Assembly (NCBI GenBank): GCA_964016885.1
Contig: OZ024740.1
Location: 250,480,001-250,544,000, forward strand
Origin: Eledone cirrhosa
Lineage: Eukaryota
Length of the DNA stretch: 64,000 bases
Direction: 5' to 3'
Made by a program: the position numbers and the translations under genes. Below, in pieces: positions 33,101 to 62,600 of the stretch. Each line of letters starts with the position of its first letter. Positions within the stretch are counted from its first letter, which is position 1. The notes under the pieces were generated by a model. That model had not been told where the DNA came from. It saw only the letters and a list, made by a program, of their open reading frames with translations, and made no database searches.

Positions 33101-34221
33101 TGACAATGCAACCTTTGTGTTTCGCATTGAAGAAATAGTCTAATGCCATTCTCGCCGCTAGCACCTCTGTTGCAATGCCACTACAAATAGCCTCGTCTAA
33201 CTTATCTACCAGCTCCCCCTCCCTTCTATTTTTCTCTAACGCTAGTTCTTTGCTGAACTCTATCGATGTTACTCTAATCTCTCTTTTGTGAGCCCCACCA
33301 TCTGTTGTTGATGATCCCCCCTGACAAATTTTGCTTAACTAAATTGTTGACTCGGTCCCTGTAAGCCTTACGTGCCGGAAATGACATGTTCAGCTTCCAG
33401 TAACCCGGTCCCAACCTACGCGTTTTATCTAGGTCGACTCAACAGATCACAAATTTGTGATCTGAATAGGTGACCGTTTTAAAAATTGGGCAGCCTACAC
33501 CATTTCTATCTATTTTCCTAATAAAGATCCTGTCTACATACGATCTAGATGACTCTATGCGGCTGGTCTACGCCCAAACTGGCGCATTGGGGAAATCTTT
33601 CGATACCTGTCAGACAGTTGGAACTGGCTGCTTAGGTGTTTGAGACTTTTGTACCCTCCGCTCCTATCAGCTACTCCCACACAATCCCAGCGTGCGTCTA
33701 AGATGCCATTCCAGTCCCCCGCTAAAAGTAGAAGACGAGACGTACCCAGAAAGCTTTCCAGGCGCCTAAAGTCCAGTCGTCCGGCCCCAGTAGGGGCGTA
33801 GACGGCCAGCAGTCTAAAGGCACCACCTTCGCTACTGCTCACATCCAGGACCACCAACTTACTGTCCGGGTCCCGGAAGATCGACCTTACCTCGAGATCC
33901 AAACCTTTCCTAAACAGCACTGCCACCCCACCTCCCATTCCCGGGCTGCTAACAGATGCGAAGATCTGATAGTCGTCGAAATTGGGGGCTAGTGCGCGCA
34001 TGTCGGAAATCCTGGTCTCGCTGACGGTAATCACATCCATTTCCAGAGACCCGAGGTTATTTAGCAGGCGACCCTGCTTCCAGCGTGACCCCAGGCCGCG
34101 ATATTTAAACTTCCTACTCTTAATATGGCCATGTTGGCAAGCTAAAATAGAGAGGGAAGGTTTACTTACTCCCAAGGCTGTTGTGCAGGTAGGGTGGTTC
34201 GACCTACATGGTTGGGAACCC

Positions 34222-34222
<1 letters not shown>
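30195..34222 (-). mobile_element. L1/Tx1-clade LINE copy A (ORF1 lost; ORF2 pseudogene with a duplicated 3' segment)
   Basis: APE motifs VSETRI, GGGVAVL, VYAP, AGDWN; RT motifs KSPGLDG, NFRPITLLN, RQGCPLS, AYAD; C-terminal CPRC..ETVLHALVQC; AATAAA then ATT tail. Confidence 0.92.

Positions 34223-34259
<37 letters not shown>
34223..34259. repeat. (AAT)n junction between LINE copies A and B
   Basis: Seen directly. Confidence 0.95.
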
Positions 34260-34260
<1 letters not shown>

Positions 34261-37200
34261 CTTTCTTTATTAACCACAAGGGTTTACATAAAGTAGACAT
34301 TAAGGACAGTACAGGACAATACAGGACGGTACAAATGGGCATTTCTGCGTGTCAAAAAAACAGAGGATGTACTAAAAAAATAACAATGAAAAATTCCCCA
34401 ATAGGGGGGAGACTTCCGAGGGACATTTGTGGAGAAAGGCCATTAAAAGGCCACAGTGAACCTGACCACCAAGGCAAGTGCCCTCTCCCAGTTTTCCACC
34501 TTTAATTTACAGACAGATACTCAGAGTAGGCCTATTCACACGGGCCATACTTGCTTCTCTCACCCATCTTTCAACAAAATGCTGGGAAGAGAGCACTTCC
34601 CTCTCTACCCTGATTTTCCTTTTCAAATGAAATTTGAAAAAGTCAATCAGAGCATCACCGAAGAGGTGAGTGCTCGTCTTCAGCCCTTTCAAACGTGTCC
34701 ACCATACTATCTCTTTCGCCATGGCCACCAGACAGATAAAAACTGCCTGCCCTTCCCGACTAAAGGAAGGGGGCGGGGCAATCCTCACGATGGACTCAGC
34801 TGATAGCTGGATCCGTCCTACACGTGACAGCAGGTGTTCGAAATAAACCCACAAGTCAGCAATGCTCGGACACTGTACAAGTGCGTTCAGGACGGTTTCG
34901 TCGCCCTGCACGCATCTCGGACATGCCCGGCTGACGGCACCTCCATGCCTGTAGAGTTTATCCCGAACTGGCAAAGCTCCACGGTAGCACAGCCAGGCCA
35001 GGGATTTCTGGAAGTTGTCCATAGGCCCCGGCCCGAAAGTCCTTCCGAAGAGATTGGCTAGTTGATTTTCGTTGACGCCTAGAGTTTCTCCAAGTACTTC
35101 GTCGCTCTTCCCCTCCACTAATCCTCTATAGAACGACAAGGTGGAGTTTCCACCGATCACATTGCCCGATTGGTCGAGGGCTGTGAGCGCCTGAAGACAT
35201 TCCAGTCTCCAAGCGCTCCCTCTCGGTCTTCGCTTGACCCAGGACTGCAGCTCCGTCAAGGAGACGAGCTGGGGAAATACGTGTCTAGCAAACGGCGACC
35301 ACACCTGATCACCGTCGAGGAAGAGGTGGAGATGTCGTAGCCTGAGCGCGTGTCTGCTCATCATCAGCCACGCCATGCCCAGCCCTCCACGTAGCGGGTG
35401 TTGACAGCAGATGGACCGCCTGACATATCGGAGCGCGTCCCTTCCACAAGAAGCGAAAGAGCAAACGCTCCAGCGCAGTCAGGCTGGGCTTAGGACAAGG
35501 TATGACGGTCAGGCGGTAGTAGATGATGGACGCGATGTACGCGTTAGCCACCTCCGCTCGACCTTTCAGGGATAGCTTCCTCTCGGCCCATTTCTGGGTG
35601 AGATAAACCACCCTGCTCGTCACCTCGTCCCAGTTTTTGTCCGTCTGGAGGTCTGGACCGAACCAGACCCCTAGCAATTTAACCGGTCCGTCCGTCCAGC
35701 GCCCGACGACGCTGTTGGACGGCATGGACCTGCCTCTTCAGGTGCCGAGTGCAGGCCCACTGACTTTTCCTGGTTGATCATTGCTCTTGTCACCGCTTCG
35801 TCTTCTCTTAGTGTAGTGCCGATCGCCTCGATGTGTTTGGCGTTCGACACCACTACGGTGACATCGTCGGCATATGCTGACACGGATCTTCCGCATCCTA
35901 GTTCGCGCGGGACCCCCCTCAACGTCTCCAATTTGTGCAGTAATGGCTCGAGAGTCAATACGTACAATAGGGACGAGAGGGGACATCCTTGGCGGACCGA
36001 GCGCATGATGTTGAACGGTTCCGAAAGGTGACCGTTCACGTAAAGTTAATAGGGCAGACCATCCAAACCAGGCGATTTACCCCTTGTGCAACCAGTCATT
36101 GCCTCCCGGAGTTCAGCGGTTGTTATCGGCTTTTCGCAAAGCTCCGCCTCAGTGGCCGAGAGCCGCGGCAGTCCGTCGAGGTAGACACTAAAGTCCATCC
36201 CTCAATCCGGCCCGCCACTGCCCCCGAACAGTTGAGCGAAGTGTCGCTGAAAAGCTTCACACATTTGCCCGGGATCGAGTAGCATGCGCTCGTCGTGGTC
36301 CACCAAAGACCGGATCGTGGCTTTGTTGCCACGACGCGCCTCAGCCACTCGGGCCCATTGAACGGCTTTCGTCCCCTCGTGTCTGAGAGCACGCACCCTA
36401 GATCTGACAACGCAGCCTTCGTGCTTTGCATTGAAGAATTGGTCAAGGGCCAATTTCGCCGCAAGCACGTCGCTAATCCGGTCTCTGTAGGCCTTGCGCG
36501 CTGGTAAGGACGCGTTTAGCTTCCAGTAGCCGGGTCCTCGTCTATGAAGCCTATCTAAGTCAAGCACACAGATCACGAATTTGTGGTCCGTGTAGCTGAC
36601 TATCTTGAATTGTGGACAGCCTATGCTAGACCTATCTATTTCCCTACAAAATACTCTATCTAGATATGATCTGGATGACCCTATGCGATTTGTGCAAGTC
36701 CACATTGGTACATTCGGGAAATCCATTTGGTACCTGTCAGACAGTTCAAAACGCCTGAGAAGGTTGGTGAGACTCTTGCACCCTCCTTCCCTCTCCACTA
36801 ATCCCACACAATCCCAGCGTGCATCTAAGATCCCGTTCCAGTCGCCCACTAACACTAAAGAGCGGGACGTTCCAAGAAAGGTCTCCAGACGCCGGAAGAA
36901 ATCAGGCCGCACTGCTCCTGTCGGGGCATAGACGGTCACTAACCTGAAAGCTTGCCCGTCTCCGCTGGTCACGTCCAGCACCACCAACTTACCCTCTGGG
37001 TCTATAAGATGGCCCGTATGGCAAGATCCAAACCTCTCCGGAAAAGCACAGTAACTCCTCCCCCCGATCCAGGACGGCTGTGAGATGCGTACACATCGTA
37101 GCCGCCGAAGATCGTTGCGAATGCCCGTGGTTCGGAGATTCTGGTCTCGCTGATGGCCACTACATCTATGTTTAGTGACCTGAGGTCGTTGAACAGGTGG

Positions 37201-39506
37201 CCCTGCTTCCATGACGACCCCAACCCACGCGCATTTATGCTGCCTATTCTGAGTGAGGTCATGTTGAAAAGGAGTGGAAAAGATGGGAAAGACCACTTAC
37301 CTTACTTCTCGTAGAGGAAGGACGGTTTTTCCATCCTTTTCACTGCTTGTGGCCTCCTCAGGAAGGATGTCCTTATAAATCCTCCTGGAGAGTGCTTGTC
37401 GGAAGTCTCCGATGTCTTTAGGGAATTTTTGTTTTAGTGTCACGTACGTTTTCTGTGTGATGCGAGTGATTTGTATGTGTGGAGGTGGTGTGAATTTTTG
37501 GGTTGTTGTATAGTCTTTTTCTGTGATGCTGGTGTTGTGTTGGATGTAGTGTAATAATTGCTTGTTGTTAAAATTTAATGCTGTGTAGTGTGTATCGTTT
37601 TGGTTGTTTTGTTTTGATTGCGTTTGTTGTGGGTTTGTTTCTGTTTCGCATTTTGGTGACTTTTGTGGTGTAGGTGATGGTGGTGTTGGGGTTAATGATG
37701 GTGATGGTGTTGGTGTTTGGGTTGATGGGGTTGGTGATGCTGGTGTGGATGGTGGCATATCTGTCCTAACTTTTTTGTTTGTTAATTTATTTGTTTCCCT
37801 CTGTATTTTGTTTTTGGAGGGGGAAGGAAGAGAATTTTTTCTTTCTTGGTTTCTTTTTTTTTCCTGATACCGTTTCCCACTCCTCGTCGTCACAATCTGT
37901 CTCCAGTTGTGATAGGCCGGGGAGTGGAAAATCCTCCACAGGCGTTAGTTTTGGTTGTGGCGTGGTGGATGGTGTAGGCGCTGGTGCTAGTTCTGAAGCG
38001 TTGGTTGGTGGTGGTGTTGGTTTTACTGGTGGTGGTGGTGTTGGTTTTGCTACTGTTGCTGGGGTTGTTGCTGTTATAGTTGCTTCTGTTGTTGCTGCTA
38101 CAGTTGTTGCTGCCATCTCTGCTACTGGTGGTGTTGATGGTTGTGTCACTGGGGTGGGTAGGAGAGGTGGCCTCAACCTTTTAGCCTGAGGGCAGAAAGC
38201 CCTTAGGTGGGTTCCTTCACCACAAACGACACACCTAGGCCTTCTGCCCTCGACAATTACGGTGAGGTGGCTGCCGTCAGTGAGGTCTATTACCTCTGGG
38301 ATCTCCTCAATGCTTTTTTGGTCCGCTTGGACCAGAAGCTCCATCCCAGATCCGGACCAGTTCTCCTGCTTTTCTTTTGCTATTGCTATTATCTTTGTGC
38401 TGGCTTCCATGCCGGCGAGGACGGCCGCTATTAGCCAGGGAATTTCGATGGCCGGTGGAACGTGGGTCACCCTGATCTTTACGAGTCTCTGGCCACAACA
38501 GCTTGGGACGAGTGTGAAGTCGTCACTTCTTAATGGGGCCATGGAGTGTTCTCTAACCTCCTCTGCTGTTTCAAAGAACACATCCACGGTTCCATACTTC
38601 TGCCCACGTCTGATGTGGGTTTTTCTTGCCCACACATGTCCCAAAGCTTTTTGTATTTGGGACTCGGATGCCCGTTCCACTCGGCGCGATTTTACATTTA
38701 TTGTTCGATACGACACGGTGCATAGGCGCCGATGCTCCATTTTATTAGGTGGGGGAGGGGGGGGGGAGGAGACTGACCCTGTACCCATCTTTCTTTACCA
38801 TTTGTTTGGCATTTTCTAATTCCTCCTGAGTTACCGTAAATGGTTCGCACTGTTTTGCTACTCTGGCAAAACTCAGGGTGGTTTTTTAATGTCATTGTTG
38901 TTGTTGTTGCTATCGTTATTTTTGTTATTATTAATTTTAGTTTCAGTTGTGGTGGTGGTGACGTCAGTGAAGTTCGGTTTGGGAGAGTTCATTTTGGTTG
39001 AAAATATTTCGACATCACGAGTTGATTTTTTTTTTTGTTTCTGTTGTCGCGGTGGTGGTGGGGGTGGTGGTTGTCGCGGTGGTGGTGGTGGTGGTGGTGG
39101 TGGTGGAGGCTTTAACACCTGCAGTCATTGGTAATGGCGGGAAATGAATGTCTGCCTGAGACAAATTTAAAATATTGCTAGTGCTTAAATTGTGTGTGTT
39201 GGCAGACGTAGTACCATTTACAATGGTGGTGTCGGTGTGAGGTGTTAATTTGTGAGGAAGGCTTTCAGCTGCTTGGTGCAGTGGTGAATTAGCCATTTCC
39301 TTCCAAAGAAATTTTTTGATAATCATAAAAGTTTAAATTTTGGGCACAAGGCCCCAATCTTTTTGGGTGTCCTTTTCGGAAAAACAATGTATGTGGGCTT
39401 ATATATAGTTAACAATAAAAATTTTCCATAAATGGCAATTTTTAACAAACGGAAATAACAAACCTTTGCGGAGCTCACGATGATACGATTTACTACGTAG
39501 GTCGCC
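34260..39506 (-). mobile_element. L1/Tx1-clade LINE copy B (5' region, ORF1, ORF2 with internal deletions)
   Basis: ORF1 with RRM-like region and CVVCGEGTHLRAFC knuckle; ORF2 starts MTSLRIGSINARGL at 37262 with APE, RT and CCHC motifs. Confidence 0.93.
37297..38788 (-). pseudogene. LINE ORF1 (RRM-like, CCHC knuckle, Pro/Thr linker, conserved C-terminal block), one frameshift at about 37860
   Basis: ORF track 37787-38788 plus 37297-37893; homologous to ORF1 of copies C, D and E. Confidence 0.85.
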
Positions 39507-39557
<51 letters not shown>

Positions 39558-39563
39558 AATAAT
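39507..39563. repeat. (AAT)n junction between LINE copies B and C
   Basis: Seen directly. Confidence 0.95.
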
Positions 39564-42500
39564 GTTTTCTTTATTAACCACAAGGGTTTACATAAAGTAG
39601 ACATTAAGGACAGTACAGGACGGTACAAATGGGCATTTCTGCGTGTAAAAAAACAGAGGATGTAATAAAGTAACAAAGAAAAATTCCGCAATAGGGGGAG
39701 ACTTCCGAGGGACATTTGTGGAGAAAGCCCAGTAAAAGGCCACAGTGACCCTGACCACCAAGGCAAGTGCCCTCTCCCAGTTTTCCACCTTTAATTTACA
39801 GATATATACTCAGAGTAGGCCCATTCACACGGGCCATTCTTGCTTCTCTCACCCATCTTTCAACAAAATGCTGGGAAGAGAGCACTTCCCTCTCTACTCT
39901 GCTTTTCCTTTTCAAATGAAATTTGAAAAAGTCAATCAGGGCATCACCGAAGAGGTAAGTGCTCGTCTTCAGCCCTTTCAAACGTGTCCACCATACTATC
40001 TCTTTCGCCATGGCCAACAGACAGATCACATTGCCCGATTGGTCGAGGGCTGTGAGCGCCTGAAGACATTCCAGTCTCCAAGCGCTCCCTCTCGGTCTTC
40101 GCTTGAACCAGGACTGCAGCTCCGTCAAGGAGACGAGCTGGGGAAATACGTGTCTAGCAAACGGCGACCACACCTGATCACCGTCGAGGAAGAGGTAGAG
40201 ATGTCGTAGCCTGAGCGCGTGTCTGCTCATCATCAGCCACGCCATGCCCAGCCCTCCACGTAACGGGTGTTGACAACAGATGGACCGCCTGACCATCGGA
40301 GCGCGTCCCTTCCACAAAAAGCGAAAGAGCAAACGCTCCAGCGCAGTCAGGCGAGGCTTAGGACAAGGTACGAGGGTCAGGCGGTAGCAGATGACAAACG
40401 CGATGTACGCGTTAGCCACCGCCGCTCGACCTTTCAGGGATAGTTTCCTCTCGGCCAATTTCTGGGTGAGAGAAGCCAACCTGCTCGTCACCTCGTCCCA
40501 GTTTATGTCCGTCTGGAGGTCCGGACCGAACCAGACCCCTAGCAATTTAACCGGTCCGTCTGTCCAGCGTCCGACGACGCTGTTGGACGGCATGGACCTG
40601 CCTCTCCAGGTGCCGAGCTGCAGACCCACTGACTTTTCCTGGTTGATCATTGCTCCTGTCACCGCTTCGTATTCTCTTAGTGTAGTGCCGATCGCCTCGG
40701 TGTGTTTGGCGTTCGACACCACTACGGTGGCATCGTCCGCATATGCTGACACGGATCTTCCGCATCCTAGTTCGCGCGGGACCCCCCTCAACGTCTCCAG
40801 TTTGTGCAGTAATGACTCGAGAGTCAATACGTACAATAGGGACGAGAGGGGACATCCTTGGCGGACCGAGCGCATGATGTTGAACGGTACCGACAGGTGA
40901 CTGTTCACTCTCACCACAGAGCAGATGTCGCTGTGCATGGCAGCGATCCAGCCTCTGAAGACGGGCCCAAAGCCAGCCGCCCCCAGGACTGCCGCTAGGT
41001 AACGATGGTCGACCCTATCGAAAGCTTTCGACTGATCTAAATTGATCAAGGACCCACCCGTGCCAGGTTCCCTAGCTACCCTCTCTACGATGTATCGCAT
41101 GAGGTGGAGGTTGTCGTGGATGGATCTGTCGGGAATGGCGCATGTCTGCGCCTCTCCCACCAGAACACCAACGACAAGCGCCAACCTCTTTGCTAGCACC
41201 TTGGCCAAAATCTTGAATTCTGTGTTTAGCAGAGTTATGGGCCGGAAATTATCTATGTTATCCCCCTTGTTCGGATCCTTTCTCAGCAGTGCCACCGCTC
41301 CTCGGCTCACAGAACTGGGAATTCTCCCGTTCTGTTGTCAGTTGCAGTAGACGTCCGCCAAGAGGCCTCCGAACAAGTCTGGCATCTGTACGTAAAGTTC
41401 ATAGGGCAGACCATCCAAACCAGGCGATTTACCCCTTGTGCAGCCAGTCATTGCCTCCCTTACTTCAGCGGCTGCTATCGGCTTTTCGGAACACTCCGCC
41501 TCAGTAGCCGAGAGCCGCGGCAGTCCGTCGAGGTGGACACTAAAGTCCATCCCTCGACCCGGCCCGCGCTGCCCCGGAACAGCTGAGCGAAGTGTCGCTG
41601 AAAAGCTTCGCACATTTGCCCGGGATCGCGTAGCATGCGCCCGTCGTGGTCCACCAAAGACCGGATCGTGGCTTTGTTGCCACGACGCGCCTCCGCCACT
41701 CGGGCCCATTGAACGGCTTTCGTCCCCTCGTGTCTGAGAGCATGCACCCTAGCTCTGACAACGCAGCTTTCGTGCTTTCTATTGAAGAATTGGTCAAGGG
41801 CCAATTTCGCCGCAAGCACGTCGGTCTCTGTAGGCCTTTGCTAAGCGCCTCGTCTAATTTTCTAACTAATTCTCCCTCTGCTCTATTTTTCTCTAATGCT
41901 AAAGCCTTACTAAACCTAATGGATTCTATTCTAATCGCTCTTTTCAGAGCAAACCACCACTTGTAGTTGACGATGGCCCCCGTCAACGCCCGCTTAACTA
42001 GTTCGCTAATCCGGTCTCTGTAGCCCTTGCACGCTGGTATGGACGCGTTTAGCTTCCAGTAGCCGGCTCCTCGTTTATGAAGCCTATCTAAGTCAAGCAC
42101 ACACATCACGAATTTGTGGTGCGTGTAGTTGACTATCTTGAATTGTGGACAGCCTATGCTAGACCTATCTATTTCCCTACAAAATACTCTATCTAGATAT
42201 GATCTGGATGACCCTATGCGGTTTGTCCAAGTCCACATTGGCACGTTCAGGAAATCCAATCGCTACCTGTCAGACAGTTCAAAACGCCTGAGCTGGTTGG
42301 TGAGGCTCTTGCACCCTCCACCCCTATCCGCTAATCCCACACAGTCCCAGCGTGCATCTAAGATCCCGTTCCAGTCGCCCACTAACACCAAAGAGCGGGA
42401 CATTCCAAGAAAGGTCTCCAGACGCCGGAAGAAATCAGGCCGCCCTGCTCCTGTCGGAGCATAGATGGCCACTAGCCTGAAAGCTTGCCCGTCTCCGCTG

Positions 42501-45109
42501 GTCACGTCCAGCACCACCAACTTACCCTCTGGATCCAGGAAGATGGCCCGTATGGCGAGATCCAAACCTCTCCGAAAAAGCACAGCAACTCCTCCCCCCG
42601 ATCCAGGACGGCTGGGAGATGCGTACACATCGTAGCCGCCGAAGATCGGTGCGAATGCCCGTGCTTCGGAGATTCTGGTCTCGCTGATGGCCACTACATC
42701 TATGTTTAGTGACCTGAGGTCGTTGAGCAGGTGACCCTGCTTCCATGACGACCCCAAGCCACGCGCATTTATGCTACCTATTCTGAGTGAGGTCATGTTT
42801 AAAATAGAGTGGAAAAGATGGGAAAGACCACTTACCGTACTTTTCGTAGAGGAGGGATGGTTTTTCCAACCCTTTTCACTTGATCGTCTGGTGAAGGGAC
42901 TGTTGAATCGTCCCTTCGGCTGGTCGTCGGCTCTTCTATGAGTATGTCCGAATATACTCTTCGGTTTAGTGTCCCTCCTAGGTATCTGAAATCACCAACT
43001 GCGTTGGGGAATTTCGTTTTAATGTTTGTGTATTGTTTCTGTGCTATTTTTAGCAGTCTTATGTTAGTTGGCGTTTTGATTGGTGCTGGTATTATGTAGT
43101 CGTGTTGTGAAATGTCTGTGTATTCAATTATGTAAGTCATTAGTTTCTTGATGTGTGTATTTATTGCCGTGCATTTGTTTTTCTGAGGGTGGGGTGTGGT
43201 TCTGCTATTTTCTTGTCGTTGTTGCTGGGTGTGTGTGTTTTGTTGTTGTGTTTGCGATGTTGGTGCTTGTGGTGGTGGTGTTGAAAGTGTTGTTGGCGGT
43301 GGGGTTGTCGCCGGTGGTGATGGTGGTGCTAGTGTGGGTGGTGATGGTGTTGGTGGTGTTGCTGCTGTGAGTCTCTTTGCAGTAGCCTTTACCCTTTTTT
43401 CATTTCTTTCCTCCCTTTTCAAAGGCGACGATGCGCTGCTTCTGCGTTTGTGCCTTCTTACAACCTTTTGCCATCCCTCTACAACCTCACACTCCATGTC
43501 TGATTCTGTGAGCTCGGGGAGGGGTACCAGCTCCACTTTTCATTCGTTGTTGTTGGTGATGTTTGCACTGGAGTCTCTGTTGCAGCTGCATTTGGTATTG
43601 CTGTTGTTGTTGTTAATACTTCCACTGCTGCTGCTGTTTTTGATTTCCGTGGCGTGGGTATGGGTGCCACGGACCTATTGTTCCTGGTTGCCGCTTGTCC
43701 TATTGCTGGTAGCCGTGGAGCCGGTTTCGGAAGGAGGGGGGTTTTCTCCTTTCTCAGGGTCTTCTCGTTGTAGAAGGCCCTGAGGTGAGTCTTCGATCCA
43801 CAGCGAAAGCATTTCGGGCGTTTGCCCTCAACACTTATGGGCAGTTGAGTGCCGTTATCGAAGTCTATCACATCCGGGATAGCTTCGATGCACTCCTGGT
43901 TGGTTTGGATTAACATCTCAATGGAGGTGCCGACCCAATCTTCTCTTACTTTTTTCTGTACTTGCAGTACAGTTGTTTTGTCCTCGATTCCGACGAGGAC
44001 AGACGCGGCCAGCCAAGAAGGGGCCATCCCGGGGGGGGGGGTTAGTTTGACCCTCACAATTTTTTGCCCGCAGTAGGAGGGCACCAACACCATTTCCTCG
44101 CTCCTTAGGGTCACTAAGGATTGAGCCTTTGCCTCCTAGAGTGTGGCAAAAAGTACGTCTACGGTGGCATATTTCTTGCCTCGGGTGATGTGCGTTTTCC
44201 GCTGCCACACAGACCCCAAGGCGTTTTGTATTTGAGCCTCTGTGGCTTGTTCAACCCTACAGGATTTTGTACTTACTGTACGGTACGTGACCGTACAGTG
44301 CTGTTGGGTTTCGAAAAATGTTTCCGCTGCCTTGCAGATTGCTCGGTGTCCTGTTTTTGTCACCATCTTCTTCGCTTCCTCTAATTCCTCATTTGTTATG
44401 AGGATGGTTTCCAGGTTCTTTGCGATACCTGCAAATGTGTTGGTTTTTCTTTGTTGCTGTTGTTGTTGTTGTTGTCGTCAGAGCTGCTGTTACTTTTGTT
44501 GTTGCTGCAGGTACTACGACTACTGCCGCCGCCGCTGTTGCTGTGGTTGTTGTTGTTGTTGCTGCTGCTAATGCTGTTGTTGTTTATGCTGCTGCTGATG
44601 CTGTTGCGGCTGCTACTGTTGTTTTCATTGTCACTATTTCTGTTGTTATTACGGCTGCTACTGCTATTCAGACGAATGAAATGGGTTTTCGTATTTCCCG
44701 CACACCTGTTTCGTCGTTGTCGTCGTCGTCGTGGAGAAATCTTGCACGCTTTGCACGAGACTTTTCTTTTCTGTCGTCGCTTGCGAAAGAGAAGGGAGGG
44801 AGAGAGACAATCTTCTCTCTGCTGTAGTGACGATTGAGGAAGAAGAAGACGGAATGAGTGGGAGTGACCTATGAAAATTCTTTGTCGTAGCCATGTTGTT
44901 TTTTTGTTTAAAATAAATATTAGGCACAAAACCCCAATAAGCAGTTATTTAACCCCGAAGGGCCAAATAACGGGCAGAAAGACCCCTCTCACGAGGAGGA
45001 GGGTGTTTTTGTCTACAAGTTGGTTGAAGTTTTAAACAATTTACAATTGTTATAGCGGTCAAAATTTACAATACCTTACAGAGCCGAGCCTCCGTCAACC
45101 ATAGCATTC
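39564..45109 (-). mobile_element. L1/Tx1-clade LINE copy C (chimeric: D-like ORF1, B-like ORF2 and 3' UTR)
   Basis: ORF2 starts at 42796; 504-aa RT stretch 39796-41310; ORF1 knuckle CFRCGSKTHLRAF; 3' UTR nearly identical to copy B. Confidence 0.93.
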
Positions 45110-45139
45110 AATAATAATAATAATAATAATAATAATAAT
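45110..45139. repeat. (AAT)n junction between LINE copies C and D
   Basis: Seen directly. Confidence 0.95.
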
Positions 45140-48100
45140 TTCTTTATTGGCCACAAGGGCTGACATCAAGAAAAACATGACGGAACAGGACGGTACGATG
45201 TGTGTTTTGTGCGTGTAAATATTTTTATTATTTATATAAGAAAAGAAAAAAGACATAAAACATATATATATATAAACAATAAAATGAAAATTGAAACAAT
45301 GAAAAATTCCCCAATAGGGGGGGAAACCTCCGAGGGTTTCCCGTGGCGTAAACCACACAAAAGACAACGGCCACCCTGACTACCAGGGCAAGCGCCCTCT
45401 CTCAATTTTTCCATCTCTCAAACTACAGACGTATATTCAGAGTGGTCCCGTTCACTCGGACCATTCTCGCTACATTCACCCACCTTTCAACAAACTTGCT
45501 AGAAGGCAGCACTTGCCTCTCCACCCTGATTTTCCTCTTCAAGTAAAACTTGAAAAAGTTAATCAGGGATTCGCCGAAGAGGAAAGTGTTTGTCTTTAAT
45601 CCTTTTAACCTTGTCCACCACACAATCTCTTTCGCCATGGCCACCAGGCAGATGAAAACCGCCTGCCCTTCCTCCTGAAGGGAAGACGGCGAGACCATCT
45701 GCACAATGGACTCAGTCGACAACCGGATCACTCCCACACGTGACAGCAACTGTTCGACATAGCTCCACAAGTCAGCAATGCTCGGGCACTGAACGAGTGC
45801 GTGCACAACGGTTTCGTCGCTATGCGCGCATCTCGGACAGGCTCGGCTGACGGCACTTCCGTGCCTGTAGAGCTTATCTCGAACCGGCAGCGCTCCCCGG
45901 TAGCACTGCCAGGCCAGGGATTTTGGGAAGTTATCCATAGGCCCCGGGAGAGAGCAAGCAGCTGATCTTCTTCGATGCCCAGGATCTCTCCGAGAACGTC
46001 GTCGCTCTTCCCCATCCACTAGTCCTCTATAGAACGCCGAGGTGGATGTTCCACCGAAACTGGTGCCCAACTGGGAGAGGGCAGTGAGCGCCTGGAGACA
46101 TTCCAGTTTCCAAGCGCTATCCCTCGGACTTTTTCTGACCCAGGACTGCAGCTCCGTCAAGGAGACGAGCTGTGGGAAAATGTGCCTGGCGAACGGCGAC
46201 CACACCCGTTCACCATCAAGGAAGCACCAGAGATGTTGCAGCCTCAGCGCATGTTTGCGCATCATCAGCCATGGCATGCCCACTCCTCCACGCAACGGGT
46301 GTTGACAGCAGATGGATCTTCTGACCATGGGAGCGCGTCCCTTCCACAAAAAGCGGAAGAAGAGGCGCTCCATTTTGGTGAGAGTTGGGCTGGAGCAAGG
46401 GACGACGGTGAGGCGGTAGCAGATGACGGATGCGATGTACGCATTCGCCACCTCCACCCGGCCTTTCAGGGACAGCTTCCTCTCAGCCCATTTCTGGGTG
46501 AGGGAGGCCACCCTGCTCGTCACCTCGTTCCAGTTTTTCTCCATCTGGAGGTCCGGTCCGAACCAGACCCCGAGCAATGTAACCGGTCCGTCCGTCTAAC
46601 GCCCCACGACGCTGTCGGACGGCATGGACTTGCCTCTACAGGTGCCTAGCTGCAAGCCCACCGACTTTTCCTAGTTTATCTTTGCTCCTGTCACCATTTC
46701 GTATTCCTTGAGAGCGATGCCGAGCATCTGGACGTGTCTGGTGCTCGACACCACCACGGTGACGTCGTCCGCGTAAGCCGACTCGGATTTACCGCATCCT
46801 AGTTCGCGTGGGACGCCCCTCATCGCCCCCAGTTTGTGCAGTAACGGCTCGAGTGCCAATACGTACAAGAGGGACGAGAGGGGACAACCCTGGCGGACTG
46901 AGCGCATGATGCTGAACGGCTGCGACAGGTGACCGTTCACCCTCACAACTGAGCAGATGTCGCTGTACATTGCTGCGATCCAACGCCTGAAAACGGGCCC
47001 GAAACCGGCTGCCTCGAGGACCGCCGCCAGGTACCGTTGGTCGACCCTATCGAATGCTTTGGATTGATCCAAGTTGATCAGGGCCCCACCCTTGCCAGGT
47101 TCCTTAACCACCCTCTCTATGATGTATCGCATGAGGTGGAGGTTGTCGTGTATGGATCTGTCCGGGATGGCGCATGTCTGCGCCTCTCCCACCAGACTCT
47201 TGACGATAAGCGCAAACCTCGTTGCTAACACCATGGTCAAAATCTTGAACTCTGCGTTTAGCAGAGTTATGGGCTTGAAATTATCAATAACATCCCCCTT
47301 GTTCGGGTCTTTTCCCAGCAGCGCCACTGCTCCCCGGCTCACAAAACTGGGAATGCTCGCGCCTCTGCCACCCGAGCCCATTGGACGGCTTTTGTCCCCT
47401 CGTGTTTCAGAGCACGCGCTCTAGCTCTGACAACGCAGCCTTCGTGTTTTGCGTTGAAGAATTGGTCGAGTGCCAATCTCGCCGCAAGCACGTCGGTTGC
47501 GATGCCTATCCTAAACGCCTCTTCTAGCTTTCTGACTAGCTCTCCCTCTACTCTATTTTCCTCTATCAGTACTCCTTTGCTAAACCTAATTGACTCTACT
47601 TTAATTGTCCTTTTCAGGGCGAACCATCACCTGTTGTTGACGACCGCTCCCGTCAACGCCCGCTTAACTAATACACTAATCCGGTCTCTGTAGGCCTTGC
47701 GCGCCGGGAAAGACGCGTTCAGCTTCCAGTAACCAGGCCCTTGTCTATGAAGTCTGTCTATGTCGATCTCACAGATCACAAATTTGTGGTCTGTGTAGTC
47801 GACTATTTTAAATTGTGGACAACTTATACTAGCCTTATCTAGTTCCCTGCAGAATACCCTATCTAGATACGATCTGGATGACCCGATGCGGTTTGTCCAT
47901 GTCCACATTGGCACATTCGGGTGATCCAGTCGATACCTGTCAGACAGTTCAAAACGTCTGAGCAGGTTGGTGAGGCTCTTGCACCCTCCTCCCCTATCCA
48001 CTAGCCCCACACGATCCCAGCGTGCATCCAAGATACCGTTCCAGTCGCCCACTAACACTAAAGAGCGGGACGTTCCAAGAAAGGTCTCTAGACGTCTGAA

Positions 48101-50757
48101 GAAATCTGGCCGTCCTGCCCCTGTTGGGGCGTAGACGGCTACTAGCCTGAAAGCATTGCCTTCGCTGCCGGTCACGTCCAGCACCACCGACTTACCTTCT
48201 GGGTCCAGGAAGATGGCCCGTATCGCGAGATCCAAGCCTCTCCGAAAAAGGACGGCAACCCCTCCCCCACGATCCTGGACAGCTGGGCGATGCGTATACA
48301 TCGTAGCCGCCGAAGATCGGTGCGAAGGCCCGTGCTCGGAGGATCTGGTTTCACTGATTGCCACCACATCTATGTTTAGTGACCTGAGGTCATTGAGCAG
48401 GTGACCCTGCTTCCAAGATGACCCCAGGCCACGTGCATTTATACTGCCTATTCTGAGTACAGCCATGTTGGATGAGAAACGAGGCAAATGAGAAAGGGTC
48501 ACTTACCTTGTTCGTGTGGTGAAGGGACAGTAGAACCGTCCCTTTCGCTGGTCATGGGTGTTTCCAAGAGGATGTCAGTGTATATCCTCTTGTTAACCGT
48601 CCCTCTGAAGTCTCCAACCGCGTTGGGGAATTTTTGTTTTAAAAGTGTGTACTGTTCTATTGATATTTCAATGATGCTTATGTTTGTCGGGAGAGTTCTT
48701 GGTGTTGGTGGGGTGTAGTAGTTTTTTTCCGTGATGTCTGTGCGCTGCTTTATATATTTTATGAGTTCTTTTTTTGCTATGTTTATGGCTGTGTACTTTT
48801 TGGGGGGAGGGGTGATTTTGTTGCCGTTTTCTTCTTGTTGCTGTTTGAAGTGTGTGTCTTGTGTTTGCGTTGTTGGTGTTTGTGGTGGTGTTGCTGCAAG
48901 TTTCCTTGCTGCCTTTACCCCTCTTTGTATGCCTTCGCTTTTGTTTTTTGTTTTTTTGTGGCACACTGTTTGCCACGTCACGCCCGCCTCAAATTACATG
49001 TCGGATTCTGTAGCGTCTGGGAGGGGTATGTGCTCCACGGCTGTTGGTGGTGGTAGTGGAGCCCTCTTCGGCAATGTTGTTGCTGGTGTAGCTATTTCAA
49101 ATGAAGCTATTGGTGTTGCCGCTACTGATGATGCTGCTTTAGTTATCCGTGGCCTTGGTACGGGTGCTACGGACGTTGCCCTCCTACTCACAGTGGAAGG
49201 GGCTTCTTCGTTTGTTGTCTGTCCTGCTCTTGGTAGCAGCCGACCAGGTATTGGAAGGAGAGGGGCCCTCTTCGGTGTCTTCTGCGGGCAAAAGGCCCTG
49301 AGGTGACCTTTCGACCCACAGAGATAACATTTTGGCCGTCTTCCTTCTACACTTATAGGGAGTTGGAGTCCTTCCTCAAAGTCTATGATATCGGGGATAG
49401 CCTCGATACATTCCTGGTCAGTTTGTATAAGCATTTGCATGCCTATACCTGACCAGTTCTCTCTCCCTATTTTTTCTTCTTGCAGCATGGTCGCCCTGTT
49501 CTCAATTCCAGCAAGGACAGACGTGGCCAGCCAAGGTTTGGGCACGTCGGGTGGGACCTGGGTCACTTTGACCCTCACAATTTTCTGCCCGCAGTAGGAG
49601 GGCACCAAGACTAACACCTCACTCTTTAGGGTTTCCAAAGAGTGAGACTTTGTTTCCTGGGGGGTGGCGAAAAGTACGTCTACTGTGGCGTACTTTCTGC
49701 CTCGGGTGATGTAGGTTTTGCGTGCCCAGACGCACCCCAAAGCCTTTTGGATTTGAGCCTCCGTGGCTCTCTCCACTCGATGTGAGATTTTGCTTACGGT
49801 GCGGTAATTCACCGTTCGTAGCTGCTGGTCCTTGAAAAAATCGGGTGGAGGTTTCAGGGAAACTCTATTTGCGCTTCTTGTCACCATGGCCCTTGAGACT
49901 GCCACCTCCTCCTCTGTGACTAACACTGTCTCGATATTTCGGGCGACACCTGCAAAAGAAGAGGTCCCTTTTTCAGCAGCACCACTATTGCTGCCGCTAC
50001 TGGTCTTACTGGTGGTGCTGAGGTCGCTATTACAAGTATCGGTGTCATTGTTGTTCTTTTCGCTGGTACAGTTGTTGGTGTTGTTTTCGTTGATACTGTT
50101 GCTGCTGTTACTGTTATTGTGGCTGTTGTTATTATTGTTGTTTTTGTTGATACTGTTCCTACTATTATTGTTGTTGTGGCTGTTGTTATTGTCATTGTTA
50201 TTGTCGTTCTCGACCTTACCGCTGTTATTTTTGTTATTGTCGTTCTCGACCTTACCGCTGTTATTTTTGTTATTGTCGTTCTCGACCTTACCGCTGTTAT
50301 TTTTGTTATTGTCGTTCTCGACCTTACCGCTGTTATTTTTGGTGTTGTTGTTGGTGATGTTGTTGGTGTTATTGTTGGTGTTGTTTGTGTTAGAAATATT
50401 TGTTAATTTTAAATCTGTAACAATCTTTTTTTCCTTTGTAATATTTTCGTTTATATTTACCTCCGCTGGAACGCTGTCTTGCTGATAAAGTCTCCCTCTC
50501 TCTGTGTTGTCTGACAGCGCTCTCTCTCTTTTTTGTGTTATCCATGTTGAAATTTTTCAAAAAATATTTTTACACAAATACGAATACGACATCCCGTAAA
50601 GGGGTGCCGTATTATTTACTAGTGAACCCCTGTATTAGGTGGGTCACTTCTAAACTTTTATCAAATTTAAAACTTGAATAAAAGGTTTAGAACGGTTGAA
50701 AAAGAGGTAAAACGTTGAAAAAGACTGGAGGCGATAAGAAGCGTGGCTTCACCGACC
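45140..50757 (-). mobile_element. L1/Tx1-clade LINE copy D
   Basis: ORF1 with CYLCGSKGHLRAFC knuckle; ORF2 starts MAVLRIGSINARGL at 48466 with APE, RT (AYADD) and CPRC..H..C motifs; frameshifts and deletions. Confidence 0.93.
50195..50340. repeat. 33-bp minisatellite, about 4 copies, in the 5' part of copy D
   Basis: ttgttattgtcgttctcgaccttaccgctgttattt repeated. Confidence 0.92.
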
Positions 50758-50789
<32 letters not shown>

Positions 50790-50802
50790 TAATAATAATA
50801 AT
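50758..50802. repeat. (AAT)n junction between LINE copy D and the R4-like element
   Basis: Seen directly. Confidence 0.95.
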
Positions 50803-53800
50803 GATCCTTTTTACCTCCCACTTTAAGTCCTGGTATCGGTTAATTTTCTCCACTCTCCTTTTCTTGCACTCTCGTGTCGAATGGACAGGCCACATCCACA
50901 ATCAGGCACGATATTTTTTCTTTGTCCAAAACCACCAGGTCTGGTCTATTGTGTTCCAGTTTCTTGTCCGTCTGTATCCTAAAATCCCACAGCACCTTCA
51001 CCTGATCGTTTTCTATCACCGACTCTGGCTTATGCTCATACCACTTCTCAGAATGTGGTAAATTGTTTACTTTGCATAGGTGCCAGTGGATCACCTTGCC
51101 CATCACATCATGTCTCCAGCCCTTATAGTGAGTCTGGGCTAAGTGTTTACACTCGGATACAATGTGAGCCACAGTCACCTCTCTCTCTCCACAGATCCTG
51201 CACAGTGGGCTAGCCTCATCCTTGCAAATATGGTGTTTCAACCACTTCGTTTTGAGGGCCTGCTCGTGCGCATCCATTAACATTCCTTCTGTAGCCTTTT
51301 TAAGGTCTCCTCTTTTCAACCAGTTCCATGTCTGTGGATCTCTGAATTCAGTTTTCTCAAAGAAGGTACTATGAAGGGATTTTTCCGGAAGGCTGCTCTT
51401 TTTCATTGTTGTTATTTCCTCCTTGGACATCCCCTGGTCTATTGTCCTCTCCTTCAGTACAGTTCTGAGCATTGGCTCCTTACTATCAGTCACGTATTTG
51501 TGTAGGTTGTTTTTCTCCATCTGAACACAGTCCTCTATGCTGATAAGACCTCTTCCACCTTCAGATCTCCTTAAGTAGAGTCTATCGACATCACTCCTGT
51601 TGTGGAACATATTGTAGATAGTCAATAATTTCCTAGACTTCCTATCCATTTCTTTTTGTTCAGCAACATTCCATCTCAGAATTCCCGCACTGTACCTAAT
51701 AATAGACACAGCTCGGGAATTTACTGCACTTACGGCATTTACTGCACTTACTGCACTTACGGCATTTACTGAATTTACGGCATTCCTACTGTTCAGATGT
51801 GACTTTAATACGCTCCTTACTCTCCGCATGTATTCAGTTCTTATCAATTCCTTCATTTTTTTGTTATTGATGTCATCAGCCTCCAGAACACCCAAATACT
51901 TGTATCCCTCCTCAGTGTCAATCTCCTTTATCATCTCACCTGTTGGTACCTGGATTCCGTTACTTCTGCTCAATTTACCCTCTTCATCACAAGGACTCCA
52001 CCCTTACTAATACCAAATTGCATATATATATCATTGCTGAAAATACGTACAGTGTCAACAAGCACATCCAACTCCTTCTCACTCTTCCCGAAGAGCTTAA
52101 GATCGTCCATGAAGAGGAGGTGATTGATGGTAAGCTCTCCCTTTCCCAACTTGTATCCTGCTCTCACTTTTCGCAGTATAATGGCCAGGGGCATCAGGGC
52201 AAGGACAAACAACAGAGGGGACAGACTATCTCCCTGGAAGATACCTCTCTTGATCTTCACGCCTCCCAAGGATTCTCCAGCTGATGTTAACTCTGTTTCC
52301 CAGGACTTCATACGTTTGCCCAACAACTGTCTGATGTTATCTGCCACCCTGAAGATCTCTAGGCTTTTGGTGATCCAAGAATGAGGCACCATGTCAAATG
52401 CCTTTTTGTAGTCTATCCATCCCATGGCAAGCCCAGTGTGTCTCCTCTTGCAATTCCTCATTACCATCTTATCAATAAGTAACTGGTCCTTTGTACCACG
52501 GGACTTCTTTCGGCATCCTTTCTGTTCGTCCGGTAACAGGTTGTTTGTGTGGAGGTGATGGTAGATTTCTTCAGACATAATGCTTGTCAACAGTTTCCAC
52601 ATTACGGACAGACATGTGATAGGTCTATAGTTGGTAACATCATTACCCTTGATTCGGTCTTTCATTATCAGAACTGTGGTACCTTTTGTCAACCACTCTG
52701 GCACCTCACCTGACATCAAGCAGTCATTGAACATGGTTGTCCGTTTCGGGTGGAGGGATGTTATATTTTTAATCCAATACCCCTGTACACCATCTGGGCC
52801 TGGTGATTTCCAGTTGGTTAGTTTTTTGTCCTGCCCCTTAAGAGTTTCAACTGTGATACTCAAATCAGTTTGTTGGTGTGCCTGTTCACTAATCTCCTTC
52901 TGTACTGTCTCAATCCACACTGCCTGGTGATTATGTTTAACATCCTGCTCCCATATTCCTCTCCAGAATGTTTTAGTTTGTTCCGCCTCAGGGATCAAGG
53001 CGTTGCCTCTTTCTTTCCCTTCAAGCTGTCCAAACAACATCTTCTGGTTGTTGTCAAACATGCGGTTCTGTCTATACTGACTGACTCTGCTCTCGTATCG
53101 CCTAATCTTTGCACTCTTTGCTACAATGCGTTGCTTCAATTCCTCTATGATAATATTTAGCTTTTTCCTCCTAGTTTTGTACTTTATTTCCAGTCTATTT
53201 TTAGTGTCTATGTTTTTTAGTGTCCCATTCAGTAGGGACTCAAGCTTTCCAATGTCATTTCTCATTTCCCTGATTTGACCACTCAGTCGTTTCTTCCACC
53301 AAGGCTCTGATCTTTCTTGTTTGTTGTTTCCTCTCGCTTTTATACCAAGTAATTTCCTCACCGTATTTGCTGTTGCTTTGGGGATATTGTTGCACTGGTG
53401 AAGGCTCCTCGCCTCAAGGTATGGGATGACTTTGTTTACCTTAGCAGTTGTTTCTTTTAACTTTTTCCTGTCTACAAATCTTAGGTTCATAGGTTTCCCA
53501 CTATCATTGTTCAATTCATCTACCACTAAGTTTAGGATATCAACCAAATCTTGTCCCAGCTCGTCAGCATTCATCTCCTCAATGGCCGTATCTCTCTTCC
53601 AGGTATTATTTATTTCAGCATTCAGATCATTGTCTGCTTCGCATGGTTCCTCCGTTCTCTCAACCTCTTCACCTTCATTTCCCACTGGCTCGTTTGCCTG
53701 GCATACTCCACTCTCCATTTCCAAGCTAATCTCTCTGCTCATTTCCTCCAGTTCCAGCTCGCTTATCCACCCCTTAGTTCTTATTACTCGAGCCTGCCCG

Positions 53801-54053
53801 GCCAATTTTTGTTCATCTAATTTAAATAGACCAATCTCGTTCAAGATGTTATGCATCCGTTTCCTATAGCCTTTCTCCTTGGGGTTACTCTTCAGGTAAC
53901 ATTGCATAATAGTTTATTCAATTCTTTCGTCCAGTTGGTTCTGGTCCCTTTCCTTCTTCTTCTTCCTCCGACATCAGCAGTATATGGTTGACAGCCAGGT
54001 CCCTGCTGCTGAGCCAGGGAGCACCTGATGGGTGAGAGTCTGTCACATGACAT
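50803..54053 (-). pseudogene. R4/Dong-clade non-LTR retrotransposon ORF (RT, CCHC, restriction-like endonuclease), few frameshifts, 3' end displaced
   Basis: NWKSPGPDGVQGYWIK, NYRPITCL, IDYKKAFD, GIFQGDSLSP, HLLFMDDLK, CRICGEREVTVAHIVSEC, RHD, LWDFRIQTD..NRPDLVV..IVDVACPFD. Confidence 0.92.
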
Positions 54054-55789: not shown

Positions 55790-55822
<33 letters not shown>

Positions 55823-57554: not shown

Positions 57555-57602
<48 letters not shown>

Positions 57603-57839: not shown

Positions 57840-57921
57840 GCCTTCTGAAGATGGTTCCCTTCTCAATGGAAGTCCGCTTGGATTATCCGTTTATTCTGGA
57901 ACTTGAAACCGCGGTAAAGGC
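57840..57921 (+). ncRNA. Type-I hammerhead ribozyme
   Basis: gcctt CTGAAGA tg-gttcc...ggaac-tt GAAA ccgcgg TA aaggc. Confidence 0.78.
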
Positions 57922-57989
57922 ACATATAGTAAGTACAGCGAATTTTTTAAAATTTATTTTAAAACTTTTTCTCTATTTGCTAGGCCTTG

Positions 57990-58047
<58 letters not shown>

Positions 58048-58049
58048 AG

Positions 58050-59430: not shown

Positions 59431-59471
59431 CCGTTGCCATAATGACCACCATCATAACCGTCGCTATAAAT

Positions 59472-59630
59472 ATTGGTAGAGCGTCAGACTCCATGCTTTG
59501 CAGCATAGAGTTATGGCCCTTTACGTTCTGAGTTCAAAACCCGCCGAGGTTTACTTTGCCTTTCATCCTTACGGGGTCGATAAAATAAAGCACCAACAAT
59601 GCTGGCCTTGTGCCATACGTAAAAATAATT
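59472..59630 (+). mobile_element. SINE family 1 with degenerate (ATT)n tail
   Basis: Reverse-orientation copy of the same core. Confidence 0.8.
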
Positions 59631-59699
59631 ATTATTATCATTATTACCGTCATAATAATTATTATTTATATTATCATTGTTACAATAACCATTATTGTC

Positions 59700-62600
59700 A
59701 TTATTCCTCATGGTAGTGATCGTAGCATCAGTCAGGCAGAGGCCGTTTCATCTTCTTTTTCATCAAGTGGCAGTCGAGAAGTGGCTGCTGCTGATGCATT
59801 TGGCAAGAACAACGGCAATAACGGAGGTAGCAGCAGCAGCGGCAGCAGTAACAAAAACACCAGTGGCAGCAGTAGCTACAGCGGCAGCAACACCAACAAA
59901 ATCAGCAACAGCACCAAGAACAACACCAACTGCCACAACGATAGCACCAACTGCCACAACGACAACACCAACAACAACAGCAACACCATTACCAACAACA
60001 ACAGCAACACCATTACCAACAACAACAACGACAACAAAGAAAAAATTATTTCGCTGCCGCAGCAGCCATGAACAGGCCATGCTTCGACTTGGACTTGGCA
60101 GACAAGGAGACAAAGTTGACCTAGGCATGGAAGCTCATCAAACAGGAGCAAACCTGTGCCAACTTAACTGTCTCGGCAGAGGCCTTGGAGGCGGTGGGGG
60201 GGGGGGGGAGAACTCTGGTCTTCAGATGCATCTCAGCTAAGAGGAAAAAAGCCAATAACACTCCCCTAGCAGACGTCGAGGCTGCGCTGAGGTGCATCAG
60301 AGGAGATACGGAGTACATAGCGAGGGGTCGACAATACGGCACCAACTCGGTGCTGTTTAAGTCAGAGGCCCTGGCTTTGAAGCACTCGATGACTCCTTGC
60401 AAAACCAGCAAGGTTACTATGTACCCCTCCCACATGAGAAAAAGAACGATTAGAGTCCGCATTCCCAGGATTCCACCAGGACTAGATATGTGGTGGCTCT
60501 TGAGATGCGTGATTGTGGAGGGGACAGATGCCGTCCCAATAGAGGCAACTAGAACAGGTAGAGACGACAGGTCCGGGGTTGATCTGGAGATACTTCTCCA
60601 GATCAAACCTAAAGAACTAAAGACAATCCGGGAGCAGATCCGCCTCCAAAACGGGACGGTTCTACAAGTGATGGCTAAGGGCGGCACTGTTTCAGTTGCG
60701 GCGAAAAAACACACTTGCGAGCCTTCTGCCCTCAGCAATTGAAAAATGCAAGGGGTCAACTGAAACATCGCAAAACTACTGAACCTCATAACACGAAATA
60801 AGGAAATAGAGAAAGAGGGGGGGGGGGGCGTTTAGCACCTGCACCTTCAAAATGCACAAAAACTTTTGCTGGTGCGGATGACATTAGACAATTATAAAAC
60901 AATTAGGGAGAGCTTTCCCAATGACGTGGGAATACCCAGCGTAAAAGCCTGAAGTAGGCTTTTAAAGGGGTTCCCAATGAAAACCCCACCAACTATGGAG
61001 GTCGAACCACCCGACCTTCACAACAGCCCGGGAGGTAAGTAAACCTTTCCTCTCTCTTAGGAAGTTTAAATGTTTGAGGCCTGGGATCATCCTGGAAGCA
61101 GGGTCACCTGCTCAACGACCTCAGGTCTCTGGAAATGGATGTAATTGCCGTCAGCGAGACGAGGATTTCCGACACGCGCACACTATCCCCCATTTTCGAC
61201 GACTATCAGATATTCGCATCTGTTAGTCGGCCGTGAATGAGAGTGTGTGTGTGTGTGGGGGGGGGGGGCAGTGCTGTTTAGGAAAGGCCTGGATCTCGAG
61301 GAAAGGTCGATCTTTCGGCACCTGGACGGAAGGTAGTGCCTTTAGACTAGTGGCTTTAGACCGGGTCAAGGACGGCCGGACTTTTTTAGACGCCTGGAAG
61401 CCTTTCTCGGTACATCTCGCCCTTTACTGTTAGCGGGGGACTAGAATGGCATCTTAGACGCACGCTGGGACTGTGTGGGAGTATCCGATAGGAGCGGGGG
61501 TGCAAAAGCCTCAAGTACCTGATCAGCCAGTTCCAACTGTCTGACAGGTACCAACTAGATTTCCCTAATGCACCAGTGTGGACCTGGACCAACCGCATAG
61601 GGTCATCTAGATCATATATGGACAGGATATTCATTAGGAAAATAAACAGAAATAGTGTAAGCTGTGCACGTTTAAAACGGTCACTTATTCAGATCACAAG
61701 TTTGTGATCTGTATGGTCAACCTAGATAAGACGCGCAGGTTAGGACCTGGTTACTGGAAGCAGAACATATCAAGCTGTTCGATGGGCCCGCGTGACAGAG
61801 AGGCAGCGTGGTAATAAGACCACAATTCGGTATTTCATGGACCGAAACGGACACGAGCTGAGCGATTCCAGGCGGATGTGTGAGGCCTTTCGCCAGCAAT
61901 TTTTTCGGTTGTTCGGGGTAAGTGATGGGTCAGAGACGGTGACGGACTTCGGTCCCTACCTCGATGGCTTGCCGCAACTCTCGACGACTGACGCTGAGCG
62001 CTGCGAGGGGCCGATAACTTCAGCCGAAATTCACGATGCCCTTGCCGGCAGCACGAGGTTTGGGTGGTCTGCCCTACGAGCTTATGTAAATATGCCAGAC
62101 TTGTTCTCCAATCTCCTCGAAGCGATCTACTGAAACTGGCAGCAGAACGGGAGTATTCCCAGTTCTGTGAGCCGGGCGTAGTGACGCTGATAAGGAAAGA
62201 CGAGAACAAGAGGGACATATTAGATAATTTCAGGCCAACACAGATTAATAATTTCAAATTAGATAATTTCTCTGCTCAACACATTAAGATTTTGGTCAAG
62301 CTGTTAGCGAAGAGGTTGGTGCTTGTCGTCAGGGATTTGGTTGGGGAGGCGCAAACGCGCGCAATGCTAACCAGGTCCATACACGACAACCTCCACAAGG
62401 ACGCGGAATGGTTGTGTCGGCTTATGCGGACGATATCACCGTGATGGTGTGGGACACCTCGGAAATCGAGGTCGTCGGCAACTTGGAGGAATATGAAAGG
62501 TTGACGGGAGCAAAACCTAACCTGGAAAAGTCAGTGGGCTTGCAACTCGGCACCTGGAGAGGCAAGTCCATTCTGTCCAACAGCATCGTTGGGCGTTGGA

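Follow-up and report, generated by a model that had tools for sequence, protein, structure and literature searches.

LINE copies in the window and the hexamer at the end of ORF1

The stretch of DNA analysed here, called the window throughout, comprises 64,000 nucleotides (nt) from Eledone cirrhosa (assembly GCA_964016885.1, contig OZ024740.1, positions 250,480,001 to 250,544,000 of the forward strand). It carries five degraded copies, A to E, of one group of retrotransposons without long terminal repeats (non-LTR). These long interspersed nuclear elements (LINEs) are of the L1/Tx1 type. The subject of this report is the hexamer GTAAGT, a possible 5' splice site (donor), which lies at the end of the first open reading frame (ORF1) in each of the five copies.

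Copies A to D stand in tandem on the minus strand between about 30.2 and 50.8 kb, and copy E lies on the plus strand. Copy A (30207-34221) is truncated at its 5' end about 52 nt above the hexamer and has a degraded ORF2. Copy B (34260-39506) is near full length, is frameshifted and has two internal deletions in ORF2. Copy C (39563-45109) is also near full length, with its reverse transcriptase (RT) domain at 39796-41337. Copy D (45140-50757) contains an ORF1 with a CCHC knuckle, a PF03372 endonuclease and a PF13966 zf-RVT domain. Copy E (59700-63990) is heavily degraded, and its 5' boundary is approximate. Together the copies represent three lineages, A/E (85.5% identical), B/C (95% identical) and D, which is about 82% identical to B/C and 73% to A/E.

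Endonuclease (PF03372), RT (PF00078) and zf-RVT (PF13966) domains were matched on ORF2 pieces of D and C, and the L1 endonuclease gave a weak match to the N-terminal region of the window ORF2. In the translations of B, C and D the CCHC knuckle was seen in a separate ORF1 upstream of ORF2; searches with ORF1 of the window copies yielded no Pfam match. Among named proteins, the closest relatives come from Argonauta and Octopus and point to an octopus as the probable host. The copies are probably Tx1-like, an assignment made by likeness only, the RT tree containing no named Tx1 reference.

GTAAGT was predicted from the sequence at the ORF1 end of all five copies, each time followed by a pyrimidine tract, and all five sites were verified. 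In copy A (34164-34169, minus strand) the hexamer is in phase 1; ORF1, judged by homology with E, ends S-K-TAA (stop at 34162-34164), and the ORF2 AUG lies at 34130-34132. In copies B (37295-37300, minus) and C (42830-42835, minus) it is in phase 2 and includes the ORF1 TAA, as also predicted; the ORF2 AUG follows at 37260-37262 and 42794-42796, respectively. Copy D (48501-48506, minus, phase 1) has an ORF1 ending G-K-TGA (48499-48501) and an ORF2 AUG at 48464-48466. In copy E (61035-61040, plus, phase 1) ORF1 ends G-K-TAA (61040-61042), and a 32-nt deletion just 3' of the donor takes out the ORF2 AUG and the first AG. The motif is therefore read as G/S-K-stop in A, D and E and has the stop inside it in B and C, which is probably the result of a one-base shift. 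Copies A to D match 7-8 of 11 positions of a U1-complement consensus.

Judged on the window alone, conservation of the hexamer is suggestive, not decisive. With 33 occurrences for 34.9 expected, GTAAGT is not enriched in the whole window. Across B, D and E, 33% of the upstream columns are invariant, and there is one other invariant run of 8 columns, beside a gap. The comparison with neighbouring sites that the original prediction called for accordingly gave only modest conservation within the window, supplemented by retention of the motif in the distant family M described below. Moreover, a second GTAAGT lies about 308 nt inside ORF2 in the endonuclease coding region (36987-36992 in copy B, also at 33857, 42520 and 48190, all minus) and is retained in A to D as G/S-K-L/S codons (G-K-L in B). 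Coding constraint alone can therefore hold this hexamer.

The sites at which a transcript might be joined differ between the lineages. The original prediction took the hexamer as the donor of a mini-intron of 52-59 nt, the removal of which fuses ORF1 to ORF2. Its arithmetic is correct for B and C, in which cutting 52 nt (first AG ending at 37249) or 53 nt (first AG ending at 42783), up to ORF2 codon 5, preserves the frame. In D the phase-1 donor is indeed in frame with the TAG at 48448-48450, as had been stated, but this AG is the second one; the first, which ends at 48453 (54 nt) and is the homologue of the B/C acceptor site, is out of frame. Use of the homologous first AG in A (51 nt) and in D would give one more codon and then a stop. 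Fusion in A and D would require a later AG, at the cost of residues that align with the human L1 endonuclease as far as I10. These residues presumably lie in the first core strand of the enzyme. The pyrimidine tract adjoins the donor and not the AG: only 8-9 of the 15 positions before the first AG are pyrimidines, and no pyrimidine tract with a branch point, the latter judged by eye, was found beside the AG. Nor was a donor found at the ORF2 end of the window copies, which were read by eye.

Several further features of the window were recorded. Tracts of (ATT)n lie between B and A (34222-34259), between C and B (39507-39563), between D and C (45110-45139) and 5' of D (50758-50802), and the head-to-tail stacking of A to D at these four tracts suggests microsatellite targeting or tail-primed nesting. 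Directly upstream of D, an unrelated element with a PF00078 RT (50840-53913, minus) is about 27% identical to the Tx1-like RT and is RTE-like by reading. The ORF1 tail of copy C contains 42 extra nt (42876-42917), apparently a duplication, of which the upstream unit resembles the D tail and lacks GTAAG. In copy A (34142-34169, minus) a branch-like motif, a pyrimidine tract and a TAG 9 nt before the ORF2 AUG together resemble an acceptor, an arrangement not seen in B, C and D. With regard to the second GTAAGT, a tectonic-3-like gene model of Octopus sinensis (P0002) includes a 62-residue piece of the endonuclease that ends exactly at this hexamer; this is a possible exonisation, seen as a gene model only.

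Donor motifs in distant relatives

A search with ORF1 of D gave 322 relatives, 150 of them listed, and the C-termini of 12 were aligned. In two of them, P0014 and P0020 (the latter from Argonauta hians), the homologous ending reads G-K and G-K-S, respectively. A further alignment, of seven ORF1s at greater distance, led to 43 loci in two bacterial assemblies, G001 and G002, of which contigs C3-C19 of G001 were examined almost whole, together with part of C16 and 20 kb of C61 of G002. G001 C3-C19 (CAXXMW01) and G002 C16 (CAXXGD01) belong to bacterial metagenome-assembled genomes and contain LINE arrays and microsatellites, from which we infer that the contigs bearing the family named M here are mis-binned animal DNA. 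The G001 contigs consist of long head-to-tail arrays of mostly intact LINEs with about 70 endonuclease matches. Repeats seemingly shared between the window and these contigs were set aside as microsatellites, and telomere repeats of three types were absent from the M contigs.

The RT of family M is 51% identical to that of copy C over 318 amino acids. The RT of another family, N, is 58% identical to M and 49% to C. In the RT tree the window copies group with Argonauta (support 100/99) and these with M and N (99/99); the grouping of M with N is weak (84/81).

Family M has the hexamer at the same junction in another coding context. The ORF1 stop is followed by one G, GTAAGT, 7 nt and the ORF2 AUG, and AAG/GTAAGT, one base past the stop, is non-coding for ORF1 while the phase-1 G-K register is kept. 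Among the M copies, which are tandem and near-identical (7 haplotypes with two or more copies), the hexamer is intact in 65 of 67, in one of them base-shifted; two old G002 copies differ. Since ORF1 of M already ends before the donor, no fusion can be formed in this family, and every splice starting from the hexamer would take out the ORF2 AUG. The TAA within the hexamer is an in-frame stop four codons before that AUG.

Only two sense GTRAGT occur in the 6,840-nt M unit, at the end of ORF1 and at the end of ORF2, and the chance of both lying within 20 nt of the stops is estimated at about 1e-4. The ORF2-end site reads GTRAGT in 64 of 65 copies (35 GTAAGT, 29 GTGAGT); it is non-coding in seven of eight haplotypes and is followed by variable sequence. 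Some 243 nt past it, in the 3' untranslated region (UTR), a pyrimidine tract with an AG was found in 63 of 64 copies (L032:9944-10186). GTAAG is present in the first 200 nt of the 5' UTR in all 43 full-length array units, across three unlike 5' UTR types. In one of these types (e.g. L032:3895-3975) GTAAG lies inside a 14-nt inverted repeat. The two putative splice segments of M were lost in 0 of 60 and 0 of 62 measurable copies. The arrays contain 5'-truncated units, which suggests that they arise by retrotransposition. Rfam gave no match on 1.3 kb spanning the 3' UTR and 5' UTR of M.

In family N, CAG/GTAAGT lies 40 nt past the ORF2 stop, and 144 nt further there is a strong acceptor (L044:9573-9716). 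The 3' UTR donor-acceptor pairs of M (243 nt) and N (144 nt), retained in all measurable copies, possibly outrank the ORF1-end motif. Searches beyond these families were negative: protein searches with the ORF1 tail gave no match, longer or of near length, scans of metagenome and viral contigs revealed no relatives, and among the 201 and 127 genomes around G001 and G002 no further one carried such elements. A side observation concerns the 3' ends, at which the window copies, M and N have a short terminal motif before AATAAA in common, though their RTs are only about 50% alike; it is a candidate RT-recognition signal.

A putative donor for an ORF1-only mRNA

The hexamer at the ORF1 end is real and probably under selection. 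At a probability of roughly 45%, we favour the reading that it acts as a U1-binding donor from which a fraction of the transcripts is spliced to an ORF1-only mRNA. U1 small nuclear ribonucleoprotein (snRNP) would bind the conserved 5' splice-site match, and the share of transcripts that is spliced would lack the ORF2 AUG and yield extra ORF1 protein (ORF1p) and no ORF2 protein (ORF2p). Unspliced RNA would make ORF2p and serve as the template for copying, and because of this the putative intron would never be lost. The acceptor is uncertain. Splicing to the first AG (51-54 nt) would extend ORF1 by a single codon in the A/E and D lineages; for family M the candidates are the conserved 3' UTR acceptor, at a distance of 3.7 kb, and an AG within the endonuclease region. 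Most of the RNA may be kept unspliced by local hairpins. A further effect of U1 binding may be to prevent 3' ends from forming prematurely, as is the case for the copia element EVD. This model develops a secondary idea of the original prediction, control of ORF2 or an ORF1-only mRNA, which has gained from the donor motifs of the distant relatives and is now the favoured one.

A number of observations weigh against it. The first AG of B and C keeps the frame and does not terminate ORF1, and every copy in the window is degraded. A 3' UTR acceptor was found in B and C only, so that none is common to all window lineages. One of the two outside families, N, is without the ORF1-end motif, in place of which stop and start overlap as TAATG (L044:12620-12632); the motif is either ancestral and lost in N, or it would have been gained twice. 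The Octopus gene models P0011 and P0050 have no matching G-K end, and neither have the remaining eight of the 12 aligned C-termini. Human L1 retains a rarely used donor that is reported to be conserved for RUNX3 binding (PMC5860796), a warning that conservation of a donor can be a by-product. Finally, four sequencing runs of unknown kind, none recorded as RNA, with contigs over 34340-39035, gave no joint or loose end at the donor among the best 15 of 1,494 joints and 24 of 3,830 loose ends, a share too small to demonstrate absence. Their depth was unable to rank ORF1 against ORF2.

Spliced DNA copies were sought as well. Exact loss of a GT-AG segment was found neither among the window deletions listed nor in the measurable M copies; the deletions were accordingly rejected as candidate spliced retrocopies. 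A 32-nt deletion in copy E that starts at the second GTAAGT does not end on an AG.

A wider reading is tentative. It holds that a Tx1-like LINE clade uses splicing in the manner of retroviruses, with unspliced RNA as genome and ORF2 template. Donors in the 5' UTR and at the stops of ORF1 and ORF2, together with the 3' UTR acceptor, would then give ORF1-only and UTR-spliced mRNAs that are barred from retrotransposition, and introns on the sense strand would persist.

The alternative that survives best, though unlikely, is that U1 snRNP binds while splicing is rare or never occurs, and that this binding keeps the long transcript, which has no introns, from being cleaved and polyadenylated too early, or modulates its export. 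Donor matches conserved at three places per element with no conserved acceptor in the window lineages would be explained in this way, as would the zero spliced DNA copies and the predicted pairing of the donor, which is mostly paired in B, D and E (0.71-0.88). A splicing-independent role of U1 is supported for EVD (PMC5580714). However, in M as well as in N the 3' donor is followed by a good acceptor, which suggests that at least this intron is really spliced.

It is rather improbable that the hexamer has another role in cis. Such a role could be that of a signal for translation to terminate and reinitiate, of an RNA hairpin or of a DNA-binding site; alternatively, hexamer and pyrimidine tract together could form the branch region of an acceptor through which an upstream donor is joined to ORF2. 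The junctions of B, C and D do fold better than shuffles (z -2.5, -1.9 and -3.3), but the hairpins are not the same from lineage to lineage, and M shows no such folding (z about 0); a conserved RNA structure was rejected because of these differences. Reinitiation would suit the in-frame TAA of the M hexamer, four codons ahead of the ORF2 AUG, yet at the ORF2 end, where the motif recurs, no further ORF follows at which translation could restart. Similarly, the TAG that in copy A lies with a pyrimidine tract 9 nt ahead of the AUG would fit an acceptor feeding ORF2, whereas M has neither a pyrimidine tract nor an AG before its ORF2 AUG. For a DNA-binding site there is the precedent of the human L1 donor, which overlaps a RUNX3 site (PMC5860796).

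Still less probable is the absence of any function at the nucleotide level, with the hexamer persisting by descent through its G-K codons and stop and its presence in M inherited or due to chance. The window offers only three lineages, with the 33% of invariant upstream columns and the other 8-column run noted above; the second GTAAGT is held by codons alone, and N does without the ORF1-end motif. Against this stand the position of the M motif outside ORF1 at about 50% RT identity and the recurrence of donor motifs at the M ORF2 end and in three unlike 5' UTRs.

The fusion protein announced in the original prediction is very improbable. It draws on the in-frame first AG of B and C, which leaves the first endonuclease strand nearly intact, and on an in-frame TAG at a homologous place in A and D, but phase and acceptor are not constant across lineages, in A and D use of the first AG brings ORF1 to a stop, the tract before this AG is weak and M excludes such a product. 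L1 proteins are reported to act in cis on their own mRNA (PMC5860796). If ORF2p came from spliced RNA and this preference held here, copies without the intron would be expected; none was seen, A, B, C and D retain the spacer, and a contig of run X5 spans it unspliced. No such joint was present among the best 15 of the 1,494, and no protein combining the ORF1 tail with the endonuclease start among 159 retrieved. One protein with an ORF1 piece and an endonuclease piece (P0134) was set aside, its joint not being at the donor. The C-terminus of P0011 (XP_036364761.1) includes a short stretch like the endonuclease start without an insert of spacer length; this stretch agrees with none of the predicted junctions and may be due to chance. 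Our verdict is that the donor motif at the ORF1 end is real, that the fusion mechanism originally attached to it is not supported and that the new variant, an ORF1-only mRNA, is testable.

Comparison with known systems

LINEs are taken as intronless because their own mRNA is copied. Splice sites in L1, gag-only splicing in copia elements and intron retention in Penelope-like elements are already known. Reports of donors at LINE ORF ends or of retained 3' UTR introns in Tx1-like elements were not found among the open-access titles and abstract openings searched. The excess of ORF1p over ORF2p has been explained by inefficient reinitiation (PMC4091050). If the favoured reading is true, it would make it possible to test directly by what means a LINE distinguishes template RNA from mRNA. 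The summed contig depth at the junction in run X1 is about 550,000, which is not a copy number; since the family is abundant in this run, its donors may also shape host transcripts.

The domain order of the window elements and their position at a simple repeat recall Kibi and Koshi, microsatellite-targeting Tx1 elements (PMC4494074). The repeat in the window is (ATT)n, however, and a donor is not described for Kibi and Koshi in the cited part of that report. Family N, with its overlapping TAATG, resembles SART1, in which UAAUG couples translation (PMC2699510), whereas the window copies and M have a donor-bearing spacer in place of the overlapping stop-start. Genomic copies of Penelope-like elements retain spliceable introns, including a 5' UTR intron (bioRxiv 10.1101/2021.04.23.441226). 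These elements differ in mechanism and use a GIY-YIG endonuclease; ORF2 of the window LINEs encodes an apurinic-type endonuclease (PF03372) instead, and the elements have two ORFs.

Human L1 and its SpIREs share with the window LINE a conserved sense-strand donor and, presumably, RNA that is mostly unspliced and a cis preference (PMC5860796). In human L1 the donor lies in the 5' UTR, splicing is harmful and spliced genomic copies exist, as described in the same source; in the window LINE the donor marks the ORF1 stop, and zero spliced copies were found.

The Arabidopsis copia element EVD has a conserved U1 site that drives a gag-only mRNA and blocks premature termination, and splicing places a stop in GAG a short way past the junction (PMC5580714). 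The probable likeness lies in a conserved U1 site close to where the region for the structural protein ends, a stop just past the junction and the keeping of full-length unspliced RNA (PMC5580714). EVD is an LTR element with one gag-pol ORF and particles, whereas the window LINE is non-LTR and bicistronic, with its own ORF1 stop and without LTRs or a gag-pol polyprotein, and its splicing is predicted from DNA. BARE1 is reportedly a further Ty1/Copia element with a subgenomic gag mRNA. If true, a LINE lineage with donors at both ORF ends and an intact 3' UTR donor-acceptor pair would represent a second solution, convergent with copia elements and retroviruses.

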